A stretch of 64,000 bases of DNA from Alphaproteobacteria bacterium (GTDB lineage Bacteria > Pseudomonadota > Alphaproteobacteria > SP197). The notes beneath the pieces were generated by a model. It was given only the letters and a program-made list of their open reading frames with translations. It did not search any database and was not told the DNA's origin. Below, one piece after another: positions 12,096 to 15,390 of the stretch; the stretch's first letter is position 1, and each line of letters begins with the position of its first letter. The translations under genes and the position numbers were made by a program. The stretch lies in NCBI GenBank assembly GCA_965228895.1, contig OZ245842.1, positions 3,392,001 through 3,456,000 on the forward strand, written 5' to 3'.

Positions 12096-12603
12096 GCGGG
12101 CGACGCTCAAACGCATCCAGGAACGACGCAACCGCTGACGGATTCGAAAGCACGACACGCTCGCCGCCGAAATCCTTTAGTACGTCCATCAGCCGTAGCC
12201 GTTGGTCCCTCGGGAAGTGCCAGACGTAGACCAGGAACTCCCAGTTGAACCGCTCCGGGCAACCGGGCGTCATGTCCTCGCGCGTGCGGCCGTAGTCGCG
12301 CAAGACGCGTTTGACAACACGCCACAGGCAACGCCACCGTGGCATGTCGAGCCACACGACCGTGTCGGCCCGCTCCAACCGCTGCGGCAAGGTGCCACCG
12401 TAGTTGCCGTCCATGACCCAGGCGGGTTCCGCGATAAGGTCCTTGACCTGTTGCGTCCATGTCGCCTTATCCGGCTCGACCCAACCTGTCCGCCAGTACT
12501 GCCGGTCCAAATGCACCAGCGGCAAGCCGGCAACTGCCGCCAAGCGCTGCGCGAACACTGACTTACCCGCGCCGGGCGAACCGATGACAAGAACGCGTTG
12601 CAT
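12085..12603 (-). CDS. Adenylate-kinase-like P-loop protein (FlaR/topology modulation family)
   Basis: GSPGAGKS, HLDRQYW, WVMDGNY, GCPERF. Confidence 0.88.
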   Translation of the reverse strand: MQRVLVIGSPGAGKSVFAQRLAAVAGLPLVHLDRQYWRTGWVEPDKATWTQQVKDLIAEPAWVMDGNYGGTLPQRLERADTVVWLDMPRWRCLWRVVKRVLRDYGRTREDMTPGCPERFNWEFLVYVWHFPRDQRLRLMDVLKDFGGERVVLSNPSAVASFLDAFERRPHGT

Positions 12604-12627
12604 TGAGGCCAGTTACGTGCGCCAACC

Positions 12628-13086
12628 TCACCCTTCCAGCGCCTCAATATCGATCGGGTCGGCCAGGACGCCGGTCTTGCGGAAGGCCGCCGGCGCATCG
12701 GTACCAGGGTCGAGGGTCGAGAAATAGAGCTCGATCGTGTGGCCGTTGGGGTCGAGGCAGTAGATGCCATAGGCGACGCCGTGGTCGACCGTGGCGGTGA
12801 TCGAGACGCCGTCCTCCTTCAGCTTCCTGAGGGCCGCCTTATACGCATCAAGCGAGCCATCGAACTCGAGCGCCAGGTGGTGCACCTCGCGCCCAGCAGT
12901 CTTGCCGACATCCTTGCATTCCATCAGCGCGATATCGTGGTCGCGGGCCCCGAAGGAGAGGAACACGGCCTTAAACCGCTCGGACTCGCCGACGACCTCC
13001 ATATCGAACATGTCGCGGTACCAGGCAGCCGACTGGTCGAGATCCTCGACACCCAGCACGATGTGCGCAAGCTGCTTGATCTTCAT
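12628..13086 (-). CDS. VOC family protein
   Basis: LAHIVLGV, HDIAL, HHLALE, DHG...IYCLDPNGHTIEL. Confidence 0.88.
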   Translation of the reverse strand: MKIKQLAHIVLGVEDLDQSAAWYRDMFDMEVVGESERFKAVFLSFGARDHDIALMECKDVGKTAGREVHHLALEFDGSLDAYKAALRKLKEDGVSITATVDHGVAYGIYCLDPNGHTIELYFSTLDPGTDAPAAFRKTGVLADPIDIEALEG

Positions 13087-13191
13087 GGCCTTCCCCCTCT
13101 TCCATGAGCCGCGCCATCATAACGTGCCGGGGTGGGTACGCCGCAAGAAGGGGGTGACATCGGCCCCTGATCTCTGTATCTACCCTGCCCC

Positions 13192-13278
13192 ATGACCTCG
13201 ACAAGCCGCCATACCGCGTACTTTTGGTACTTCGGCTATCCGACGCCCCCGGCGCCGGCAGAGGATCGTTCGGCCTAA
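13192..13278 (+). CDS. Putative attenuator leader peptide (28 aa, Tyr/Phe/Trp cluster)
   Basis: Manual translation MTSTSRHTAYFWYFGYPTPPAPAEDRSA-stop; lies directly before a terminator and DAHP synthase. Confidence 0.8.
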   Translation: MTSTSRHTAYFWYFGYPTPPAPAEDRSA

Positions 13279-13306
13279 GACCCAACCACCGCCGACCTCC
13301 CCGAAC

Positions 13307-13335
13307 CGCCGCCAGGGACCTTGGCGGCGTTTTTT
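13307..13335 (+). terminator. Intrinsic terminator (attenuator) upstream of DAHP synthase
   Basis: CGCCGCCAGG-gac-CTTGGCGGCG stem followed by T6, ending 36 nt before the ATG. Confidence 0.85.
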
Positions 13336-13371
13336 ATGGCCGCCGGTCACCCAACACCCCGGAGCCACACG

Positions 13372-14436
13372 ATGAACCCCAAGAGCCAGTTGACCGACGA
13401 CCTTCGTATCGAGCGCATCGATACGCTGAGCCCGCCCGCCGAGGTGATCGACGAGGCGCCGTCCAACCCGGCCATTGCGCAGACTGTGGATGGCGCCCAC
13501 CAGGCGATCCACAAGATCCTGCACGGCGAGGACGACCGCCTGGTCGTCATCATCGGGCCGTGTTCGATCCACGATCCCAAAGCCGCGATGGAGTACGCCA
13601 ACCGCCTCGTCGCCGAACGCGAGCGCCATGCCGGCGACCTCGAAATCCTGATGCGCGTCTATTTCGAGAAACCGCGCACCACGGTCGGCTGGAAGGGGTT
13701 GATCAACGACCCCCGGCTCGACGACAGCTTTCACATCAACGACGGCCTGCGCCTGGCACGCCGCCTGCTGCTTGACATCAACGCGCTCGGCCTGCCGGCG
13801 GCCTGCGAGTTCCTGGACGTCATGACGCCGCAATACATCGCCGACCTCGTCGCCTGGGGCGCGATCGGCGCGCGCACCACCGAAAGCCAGGTGCACCGCG
13901 AGATGGCCTCCGGCCTCTCCTGTCCCGTCGGTTTCAAGAACGGCACCAACGGTGACGTGAAGATCGCCGCCGACGCCGTACAAGCCGCCTCCAACCCGCA
14001 TCATTTCCTGGCGATCACCAAGGAGGGCCGCGCCTCCATCGCGACGACCACCGGCAACGCCGATGCCCACATCGTGTTACGCGGCGGCGCGGCGCCGAAT
14101 TATGACGCCGCCGGGATTGAGTCTGCCGCCGCCCAGCTCGCCAAGGCGGGCCTCACCGAAGCCATCATGGTCGACGCCAGCCACGGCAACTCCGGCAAGG
14201 ATCACACCAAGCAGCCTGGCGTCATCGCCGATATCGCGGGCCAGCTCGCCGGCGGCGAACGGCGCATCATCGGCGTCATGATCGAAAGCCATCTCGTCGC
14301 CGGCCGCCAGGACATGGTGCCAGGCCAGCCGCTAACCTACGGCCAGTCGATCACCGATGCCTGCATGGATTGGGAGATGTCGGTCGCGGTGCTGGGTGAG
14401 CTTGCGGCCGGCGTGCGCGCGAGGCGCGGCGCATAA
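13372..14436 (+). CDS. aroG: 3-deoxy-7-phosphoheptulonate (DAHP) synthase, class I-alpha
   Basis: GPCSIHD, RVYFEKPRTTVGWKGLINDP, GARTTESQVHR, VDASHGNS, YGQSITDAC; GGAG RBS; isozyme type not resolvable. Confidence 0.95.
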   Translation: MNPKSQLTDDLRIERIDTLSPPAEVIDEAPSNPAIAQTVDGAHQAIHKILHGEDDRLVVIIGPCSIHDPKAAMEYANRLVAERERHAGDLEILMRVYFEKPRTTVGWKGLINDPRLDDSFHINDGLRLARRLLLDINALGLPAACEFLDVMTPQYIADLVAWGAIGARTTESQVHREMASGLSCPVGFKNGTNGDVKIAADAVQAASNPHHFLAITKEGRASIATTTGNADAHIVLRGGAAPNYDAAGIESAAAQLAKAGLTEAIMVDASHGNSGKDHTKQPGVIADIAGQLAGGERRIIGVMIESHLVAGRQDMVPGQPLTYGQSITDACMDWEMSVAVLGELAAGVRARRGA

Positions 14437-14456
14437 CGAAAACGCTGAACGTCCTG

Positions 14457-14562
14457 CCTCTCCCCCACTGACGCGGGGGCGAGGGGGAAAGGTCGGCGAT
14501 GGTTCCCTTTTCCTGTTTCGGGAGAGGGAGGGGCCCGATACGAAGCGTTAGGAGGGTGAGCG
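14457..14562. repeat. Degenerate REP-like palindromic element (CCTCTCCC...GGGAGAGGG type)
   Basis: CCTCTCCCCC..GGGGGCGAGG and CCCTTTTCC..GGGAGAGGG...GGGTGAG hairpins between convergent genes. Confidence 0.45.
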
Positions 14563-14595
14563 TCGGCCGGTGACACGAACGACACCGGAGATGCG

Positions 14596-15390
14596 CTAAC
14601 CACCCGCGTAACGTTCCAGAAACGCCGTCATCCTGTCGTAGGCGTCTTCCGCTGCAATGGGGTCATAGGTCATGCCCTGGATCGGCGGTCCGTCCAACAG
14701 CTCCTCCAAGTCGAAGCCGTGGGAGGCGCCGGGATAGATGACGAGCGCGTATTCGTGGTCGGGCTCGCGCGGCATGCGCATGGCGATGCAACGGTCGGCC
14801 GGCGTCCAGATATCGGCGTCGCCGATCATGACCAAGAGCGGCGAGTCCAGTTCCAGCATGCTGGGCGCGCAGCCGGGATAGATCGCGATAGCCGCGGCGA
14901 ACGGGCGTTGCCGGTCGGGCTGCGCACTCTTGATGCTCTCGATCGCCGCCAGCACCGCCGAGCCGCCATGGGACCAGCCGATGACGGCGATGGCCTCGGG
15001 GTCGACATAGGGCAAGCTTTGCAGGAACGTCTTTCCGGCATGGGCGTCGCGCGCGCGGATCGCCGGGCTCGCGACCGCGCGGTCGCCCCGGCACACGCCG
15101 TCAATGCCGCGCGGCCCGTAGCTGTCGATGCGCAGCGACACATAGCCGAGCGCGCCGAAGAAACGTTCCGCCCACGCCACGGTCGGATAGGTCCCGCCGC
15201 AGCCATTCAACAGCACCACCGCCGGGAACGGGCCCTCGCCTTCCGGCCGCGTCAGCGCGGCCGACAACACGGTCGTCTCGCCGGTAAACTCGGTCATCGG
15301 AAACTGAACGGTCTCGCTTTCGGCGCGCGCCGCGGCGGCGCTGAACACAACAGCCAGCGCGGCCATGACGCCGACGGCTATCAATCGCAT
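14596..15390 (-). CDS. Secreted dienelactone hydrolase family protein
   Basis: Signal peptide; GPFPAVVLL, GWSHGG nucleophile elbow, YPGASHGFD. Confidence 0.88.
   Translation of the reverse strand: MRLIAVGVMAALAVVFSAAAARAESETVQFPMTEFTGETTVLSAALTRPEGEGPFPAVVLLNGCGGTYPTVAWAERFFGALGYVSLRIDSYGPRGIDGVCRGDRAVASPAIRARDAHAGKTFLQSLPYVDPEAIAVIGWSHGGSAVLAAIESIKSAQPDRQRPFAAAIAIYPGCAPSMLELDSPLLVMIGDADIWTPADRCIAMRMPREPDHEYALVIYPGASHGFDLEELLDGPPIQGMTYDPIAAEDAYDRMTAFLERYAGG

Follow-up and report, generated by a model that had tools for sequence, protein, structure and literature searches.

The leader region of aroG

The gene aroG, which encodes a class I-alpha 3-deoxy-7-phosphoheptulonate (DAHP) synthase of 354 amino acids (aa), lies at 13372-14436 on the forward strand of the window analysed here, a stretch of 64,000 nucleotides (nt) from an Alphaproteobacteria genome (GenBank assembly GCA_965228895.1, contig OZ245842.1, positions 3,392,001 to 3,456,000). 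It is preceded by a short open reading frame (ORF) with a cluster of aromatic codons (13192-13278, forward strand; 28 codons and a TAA stop, product MTSTSRHTAYFWYFGYPTPPAPAEDRSA) and by a GC-rich hairpin followed by six T (13307-13335). An initial annotation, made from the letters alone, had proposed that these elements form an attenuator with a mixed-aromatic leader peptide in front of the DAHP synthase. This proposal is backed by conservation, codon-level evidence and structure modelling, and we consider it very likely that the element is a ribosome-mediated leader-peptide transcription attenuator controlling aroG. The case is built from the elements themselves and how rarely they occur, from their conservation and their association with aroG across genomes, from selection at the codon and RNA levels, and from the alternative folds of the leader. 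The hairpin and T-run were confirmed where they had been placed, and the previous coordinates hold throughout apart from the start of aroG, which is 13372 and not 13373.

The aromatic cluster, Y F W Y F G Y, is encoded at 13219-13239 on the forward strand by the codons TAC TTT TGG TAC TTC GGC TAT. As had been noted, six of the seven codons are aromatic (three Tyr, two Phe and one Trp), and we propose them as the sites of ribosome stalling. Such clusters are rare: in six frames of the 5,528,408-base genome (62.4% G+C), only nine stop-to-stop frames hold at least six aromatic residues in seven, so that the enrichment in end-product codons exceeds chance. Inspection of six other short aromatic-rich frames of the genome found no leader-like context. 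As in leader peptides of the trp/pheA type, the ORF lies 5' of an amino acid biosynthesis gene on the same strand; the upstream ORF (uORF), its cluster, the terminator and the aroG start all fall within 245 nt, with 28 nt from the uORF stop to the hairpin and 93 nt from the uORF stop to aroG.

An intrinsic terminator separates the leader ORF from the structural gene. Its stem (13307-13329) has 10 pairs, 8 of them G-C, closed by a loop of 3 and with a predicted energy of -18.6 kcal/mol. The 5' arm (13307-13316) belongs to a forward-strand segment, referred to here as region 3 (13301-13317), which also contains the preceding CCGAAC; within it, GCCGCCAG is unchanged in 45 of 45 sequences of the alpha-type set. 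Region 4 (13320-13335, forward) comprises the 3' arm (13320-13329) and the T-run (13330-13335). Strong terminators are uncommon in this genome, where 23 of 759 runs of at least six T adjoin a hairpin of -15 kcal/mol or better. At this density, the 93-nt gap separating the uORF from aroG would contain about 2e-4 of them by chance. Some of the other 22 sites may be further attenuators. The gene 5' of the leader (12628-13086) is divergent, on the opposite strand, and the terminator therefore ends no upstream gene. The T-run and the aroG ATG are 36 nt apart here, and relatives have a spacing of 20-100 nt. A GGAG (13361-13364, forward) that lies 7 nt before the ATG at 13372 is the probable site of ribosome binding for aroG.

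AroG scores 525 bits against NCBIfam TIGR00034 (aroFGH; cut-off 173), 540 bits against NF006723 (AroG), which is under the cut-off of 568, and 502 bits against NF009396 (AroH-type), which is over the cut-off of 463. It is not the only entry to the pathway in this genome. A second DAHP synthase, of class II (PF01474, 722 bits), is encoded outside the window (locus L088, G000:C1:1796668-1797981), and the 450 nt upstream of it contain neither an aromatic uORF nor a run of five or more T. With a class II enzyme elsewhere that has no such leader, aroG would be a second, separately controlled entry to the pathway. PF00793-type and PF01474-type enzymes also occur together in the control genomes of Caulobacter vibrioides and Corynebacterium glutamicum.

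Distribution and selection

We examined the regions upstream of aroG orthologs for aromatic uORFs, a check that the initial annotation had suggested. Among 41 genomes (sample a; 40 relatives and the genome itself), seven carry aroG, and all seven have the uORF together with the terminator. Sample b consisted of the best 80 of 557 confirmed aroG relatives in named genome records, with AroG proteins 66-91% identical. Together these samples give 87 loci (AroG 66-100% identical), and a uORF with at least four aromatic codons in seven plus a hairpin with at least four T precedes aroG in 84 of them, in Alpha-, Beta- and Gammaproteobacteria. The leader is thus conserved; the 84 carriers yield 81 unique sequences. 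As for the three exceptions, L038 has the uORF with no T4 run found, L080 has three aromatic codons in seven and a terminator, and L079 has neither element. The alphaproteobacterial hosts are Caulobacter, Phenylobacterium, other Caulobacteraceae, a Hyphomonadaceae metagenome-assembled genome and Rhizobium; the others are Oxalobacteraceae (Massilia, Duganella, Pseudoduganella, Herminiimonas, Herbaspirillum), Pandoraea, Burkholderia and Pseudoxanthomonas.

Broader sampling placed limits on this distribution. In an even draw of 401 genomes of the class (sample c), aroG was found in only 11 at an E value of at most 1e-80, and all nine new loci carry a uORF and a terminator (eight with at least five aromatic codons in seven, one with three). 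In an even draw of 401 genomes of the phylum (sample d), 235 have AroG-like genes. Among the best 29 new loci (62-68% identity), 24 combine at least four aromatic codons in seven with a terminator; of the remaining five, one has three aromatic codons and a terminator, one has five without a terminator, and three have neither. At 59-63% AroG identity, the pair is present in 3 of 20 further hand-picked loci and absent from 17, which indicates that the leader tracks an AroG subclade and not all class I-alpha enzymes. A covariance model (R1) built from the 45 alpha-type leaders gave one match, directly upstream of aroG, in each of the seven aroG carriers among the 41 genomes, and none in the other 34. 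As the seven relatives had been part of the training set, the informative part of this result is the silence in the 34.

Selection on the leader acts at two levels. ATG, TGG and stop codon stay in register and are retained throughout the alignment of the 45 alpha-type leaders, with the ATG and the TGG each present in 45 of 45, and the other aromatic codons toggle synonymously (TAC 19 and TAT 25; TTC 10 and TTT 32; TAT 33 and TAC 3), which points to selection on codon meaning. In the Pro-Thr-Pro-Leu-Ala-Pro (PTPLAP) stretch that follows the cluster, five third positions are G in 44 to 45 of 45 leaders and the sixth is C or T only. In AroG of the same loci, 47 invariant four-fold-degenerate residues show a mean top-base frequency of 0.73, and just one of them is invariant. 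The frozen third positions argue that the stretch is constrained as RNA, and this constraint explains the seemingly conserved peptide tail.

These patterns also bear on the idea that the choice of terminator or antiterminator is made by a protein or a small ligand, in the manner of TRAP-like, T-box-like or riboswitch systems, with the aromatic uORF being incidental. Large parts of the leader are nucleotide-invariant, as in RNAs that bind a ligand or a protein. Against this, no Rfam family matched up to an E value of 10, the aromatic codons vary synonymously with frame, ATG and stop preserved, and the unrelated-looking beta/gamma leaders keep just the aromatic run and the fold logic. We regard such a sensor as the least probable of the explanations considered, with hardly any weight against a ribosome-mediated attenuator.

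The inputs of the attenuator may differ between lineages. Phe and Tyr codons are present in all 81 unique leaders and Trp codons in 58 of them, that is in 45/45 alpha-type leaders versus 13/36 others; several further alphaproteobacterial leaders from sample c also have no Trp codon. This makes a multi-input aromatic sensor plausible, as judged from codon content. Among the Phe codons of the 81 leaders, TTT outnumbers TTC (196 vs 58), while TTT makes up 26% of the Phe codons in long ORFs of this genome. The preference may reflect a rarer codon that makes stalling sharper, or a need to keep G+C low where the ribosome covers the RNA.

Leader peptides of Caulobacter (27 aa; L014, L019, L013 and L009), that of Caulobacter vibrioides among them, have NCBI and UniRef entries under the names 'hypothetical protein' and 'uncharacterized protein', one of which is for strain NA1000. 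The peptide of the window and the beta-type peptides have no entry in the public protein collection searched. Four leader peptides matched no NCBIfam or Pfam family at E values up to 10, and an Rfam cmscan of 12900-13600 against 4227 families gave, up to the same value, only chance-level matches far under the gathering scores. With no Rfam, NCBIfam or Pfam match, the element is a candidate new RNA family, and the Caulobacter entries would become leader peptides.

The same entries could be read differently, with the uORF and terminator as an independent small-protein or small-RNA gene, aroG served by its own promoter, and the adjacency due to synteny. The Caulobacter orthologues are indeed deposited as stand-alone coding sequences, and the terminator is strong. 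The element, though, occurs once per genome among the 41 genomes searched, directly upstream of aroG and nowhere without it, with the T-run a short distance from the aroG ATG both here and in relatives; the conserved peptide tail is constrained at the RNA and not the protein level, and a mutually exclusive antiterminator is conserved. An independent gene is in our view very improbable, and the leader-peptide attenuator accounts better for these observations.

Alternative folds of the leader RNA

Before the 3' arm of the terminator has been made, the leader is predicted to form a long interrupted helix of -27.1 kcal/mol that uses up the terminator 5' arm. This antiterminator consists of the segments 13246-48:13315-17, 13250-54:13307-11, 13256-58:13301-03, 13261-64:13296-99 and 13270-74:13291-95. 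The last two, its inner helices (13261-13299, forward), span the leader stop codon (13276-78), which therefore sits inside the structure. Region 2 (13246-13258, forward; CCCCCGGCGCCGG) can pair either with the terminator 5' arm, as in this pre-terminator fold, or with region 1 (13240-13247, forward; CCGACGCC). Region 1 is the 5' arm of a predicted anti-antiterminator (1:2) hairpin (13240-42:13256-58 and 13244-47:13251-54; -9.4 kcal/mol), which begins one nt past the last aromatic codon; a ribosome halted on the final codons of the aromatic cluster would sit over region 1. Antiterminator and terminator are mutually exclusive.

A different antiterminator had been suggested in the initial annotation, in which GTTCGG (13268-13273) pairs with CCGAAC (13301-13306) and GGC..GG extends the helix. 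The two words are present and complementary, but we rejected them as a working helix. The pairing amounts to -10.1 kcal/mol compared with -27.1 for the predicted antiterminator and appears in none of the constrained folds, in which 13270-74 pairs with 13291-95, and the conserved antiterminator uses 13246-13254. Across 45 relatives, 73.3% of its cells are paired, a value reached by 176 of 500 shuffles, and two of the pairs in its centre cannot form in 38 and 41 of the 45, although the alignment is variable there, which weakens the test somewhat.

RNAalifold recovered the same 1:2 hairpin and the terminator from the 45 alpha-type leaders, with almost no covariation, and the terminator alone from 34 other leaders. 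In the alpha-type set, the conserved register of the helix between regions 2 and 3 (CCYYGGCG:CGCCAGGG) has 98.0% of cells paired over the 45 sequences, versus 32-58% when the strands are slid, and includes two compensatory pairs. The corresponding beta/gamma helix (GGCGGU:ACCGCC) is invariant and 97.1% paired in 34 sequences. The OFF structure of the beta/gamma leaders comprises an outer stem round the aromatic codons, the 1:2 hairpin and the terminator; in it, compensatory changes affect 8 pairs in 27 cells, and none of 500 shuffles reaches the observed cell count or score.

In Oxalobacteraceae-type leaders (L045-L087, alignment A2; for example L051:1337-1480), a Thr-Gly pair interrupts the Phe run (FFTGFFYF); its codons supply an ACCGGC that pairs with GCCGGU past the stop codon, giving an outer stem with the aromatic codons inside it. 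This stem is found with compensatory changes in other lineages, column pair 25:75 being GC in 17 sequences and UA in 8. A GCCGCCA at leader codons 4-6 of the window (13205-13211) is a candidate extra copy of region 3, and it pairs with region 4 in one full-length fold of the Caulobacter type.

Folding with the ribosome-covered region constrained had also been suggested. We used a thermodynamic-only mask model in which the RNA is masked up to 12 nt beyond the A-site codon, and applied it to the 81 unique leaders. In the model, the terminator 5' arm is paired with a probability of 0.83 when the ribosome occupies the aromatic codons, but of 0.28 when it has arrived at the stop codon. The stalled value is higher in 81 of 81 leaders, and a probability of at least 0.6 is reached by 77 of 81 stalled and by 0 of 81 at the stop. 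For the leader of the window, the ribosome at the stop lowers the value from 0.77 to 0.34. When the intervening sequence was dinucleotide-shuffled, the value was 0.60 compared with 0.85 observed, and 79 of 81 leaders lie above their own shuffle mean. The geometry in the model is that expected of a leader-peptide attenuator, in which stalling frees region 2, whereas a ribosome that has reached the stop codon blocks the pairing of regions 2 and 3.

Directly after the T-run lies a further conserved segment, ATGGCCGCCGG (13336-13346, forward; region 5), which is complementary to the terminator 3' arm. Of the 45 alpha-type leaders, 39 have a CCGCC-like word within 22 nt past the T-run, compared with none of the 36 others, and the predicted duplex of region 5 with the terminator 3' arm has an energy of -15.0 kcal/mol here and -13 to -15 kcal/mol across leaders. 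The sequence (ATG)GCCGCCGG also follows the T-run in L002-L047, L065 and L072. We considered the ATG at 13336 as an alternative start of aroG and discarded it: it is in the aroG frame at just 7 of the 33 alpha-type loci that have the ATG, and 12 of 45 have none. Region 5 is therefore taken as an RNA element and not a start codon; according to the modelled duplex, it may lock the read-through messenger RNA (mRNA) through pairing with region 4.

Since GCCGCCGG can pair with the terminator 3' arm, it hints at structure near the aroG start in the full-length mRNA, as would suit control at the level of translation or of Rho. The hairpin or uORF translation would then modulate how aroG is translated or how Rho gains access, and the T-run hairpin would be secondary. 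A hairpin with at least four T (T6 here) is nevertheless kept in 84 of 87 loci of three classes, and the aroG GGAG lies outside every predicted helix of the full fold. Such control is about as improbable as the independent gene, and transcription attenuation at the terminator remains our preferred explanation.

The start of the leader transcript may lie very close to its first codon. A -35-like hexamer, GTGACA (13154-13159, forward), and a -10-like element, TATCTA (13177-13182, forward), make up the putative leader promoter, recognised by sequence resemblance. In the ATG-anchored alignment, most alpha-type leaders carry a GTGAC/TTGAC-like word 35-38 nt ahead of the ATG, and many relatives carry a CTAnA/TATA-like word about 12-17 nt ahead of it. 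A strict scan of 12600-14700 gave no consensus sigma-70 promoter. A Shine-Dalgarno-like word occurs within 16 nt upstream of the ATG in just 8 of 81 unique leaders. With promoter-like words so close to the ATG, the spacing suggests that the leader mRNA is leaderless or nearly so. None of the 23 sequencing runs listed for expression evidence contained raw RNA reads of this organism. A single low-depth metatranscriptome contig of 151 nt (X10; 4 other letters, 2 gaps) covers 13132-13282, that is the promoter region and the leader ORF. It begins 60 nt before the leader ATG and stops at 13282, and may stem from carried-over DNA or from a transcript that starts further upstream. In a second RNA-contig run, only conserved parts of aroG were covered, at less than 95% likeness.

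From these features we infer how leader translation, stalling, the transcript start, read-through and the amino acids that count might fit together. Transcription would start probably at or just before the ATG at 13192, and the 28-codon leader would be translated as RNA polymerase proceeds. With ample Phe-, Tyr- and Trp-tRNA, the ribosome would reach the stop codon at 13276-78 and cover the inner antiterminator helices. Behind it, the anti-antiterminator hairpin (13240-58) would re-form, and the terminator (13307-29 and T6) would then fold, halting transcription 36 nt short of aroG. Under shortage of any aromatic aminoacyl-tRNA, it would instead be the cluster at 13219-39 where the ribosome stalls, covering region 1 (13240-47) and leaving region 2 (13246-58) free to pair with the terminator 5' arm (13301-17), so that no terminator forms and aroG is transcribed. 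A more ambitious reading, to which we give somewhat less than even credence, combines these points from sequence: a leaderless 28-codon Phe/Tyr/Trp OR gate on an accessory aroG, belonging to an undescribed family of Alpha-, Beta- and Gammaproteobacteria that fills the role of TyrR and TrpR in enterobacteria and has lineage-tuned inputs.

Several observations weigh against an attenuator of this kind. A loose terminator pattern scan found one site, compared with a shuffle mean of 1.2, and is not significant by itself because shuffles match its count. The leader ATG of the window has no preceding Shine-Dalgarno sequence, with leaderless initiation deduced from spacing, and the two RNA-contig sets for the locus reveal neither start, end nor read-through. 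The conserved register between regions 2 and 3 contains a C-A mismatch in the leader of the window, and these helices are near-invariant, so that covariation is thin (two pairs among the alpha-type leaders and none among those of the beta type). Sequestration of the terminator 5' arm in the window's own leader, 0.77 versus 0.56 in shuffled sequence, is reached by 3 of 30 dinucleotide shuffles. RNAduplex pairing of region 2 with the terminator 5' arm, compared with mononucleotide shuffles, has a mean z of -1.5 with 24 of 81 leaders below -2, and a z of -0.17 for the window's own leader. Finally, the pre-terminator fold already favours the antiterminator without a ribosome (0.77 here, mean 0.64), which means that the OFF state must come from translation proceeding as far as the stop codon, or else from the 1:2 hairpin acting as a kinetic trap.

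Relation to known attenuators and to DAHP synthase control

The trpL and pheL attenuators of Escherichia coli combine a short ORF containing product codons with alternative 1:2, 2:3 and 3:4 pairings and an intrinsic terminator before the gene. The present element resembles trpL-trpEDCBA and pheL-pheA in having a product-codon ORF, a four-region RNA and a terminator just before the gene, and also in detail, since region 1 follows the regulatory codons immediately and the antiterminator contains the stop codon. It differs in that codons of three amino acids are mixed, that the target is DAHP synthase, the first common step, that the leader apparently has no Shine-Dalgarno sequence, and that no Rfam leader family matches. 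The mechanism is therefore of the classical trp/pheA design, while this proteobacterial family is apparently undescribed and widespread. Both trpL and pheL are given as E. coli leaders in PMC11802643, and E. coli DAHP synthase is described as controlled via TyrR and TrpR (PMC5343134).

The closest characterised case is aroR-aroF of C. glutamicum, in which a leader with Phe-Tyr-Phe precedes a DAHP synthase gene and ribosome stalling raises transcription (Neshat et al. 2014, as described in PMC11802643 and PMC7356990); it is reported to respond to limitation of Phe and not of Tyr (PMC11802643), a narrower input than the three-way OR gate put forward in the initial annotation. The likeness is one of function as described there, and C. 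glutamicum shares with this genome the possession of both enzyme types. aroR-aroF differs in being actinobacterial, in having no Trp codon reported, and in having been tested experimentally, whereas the present element is known from sequence alone. The trpL/rnTrpL attenuator of trpE(G) in Sinorhizobium meliloti is likewise an alphaproteobacterial, ribosome-dependent uORF attenuator (PMC6614838, PMC7298713), but it senses Trp alone, targets a gene of the Trp branch, and releases an RNA and a peptide with functions in trans. In mycobacteria, leaderless short ORFs rich in Cys codons at the 5' end of the mRNA are described as attenuators in a preprint (bioRxiv 10.1101/834739). The element here likewise has a short 5'-end ORF rich in the amino acids of the pathway, its leaderless state being suggested by promoter-like spacing; the mycobacterial ORFs differ in using Cys codons and in belonging to Actinobacteria.

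The initial annotation knew of no characterised example in Alphaproteobacteria, and our full-text literature searches likewise found no description of a proteobacterial aroG leader, although an earlier computational prediction may exist. The main text of Naville and Gautheret 2010 (PMC2965389) contains no occurrence of aroG, aroF, aroH, aromatic, DAHP or heptulosonate. Schrader et al. 2014 (PMC4117421), a ribosome profiling study of NA1000, name leader coding sequences before trpS and ilv in the main text, which mentions aroG or DAHP 0 times; the supplementary datasets may list the uORF.

DAHP synthase is the enzyme by which carbon is committed to Phe, Tyr and Trp alike, and its regulation outside enterobacteria and Corynebacterium is poorly mapped. 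The attenuator would explain the control of aroG in many soil, water and plant-associated Proteobacteria, and would offer a natural system for asking whether one attenuator reads several amino acids. In Ralstonia solanacearum, fusions of aroG1 and aroG2 with about 600 bp of upstream DNA showed a 10-20-fold rise on deletion of the other copy (PMC6379268). The report names no mechanism, with 'leader' and 'attenuat' each occurring 0 times, and by analogy an aromatic leader attenuator may explain this derepression. Removal of such an attenuator is already known from strain engineering for aromatic compounds, where aroR has been replaced (PMC7356990).

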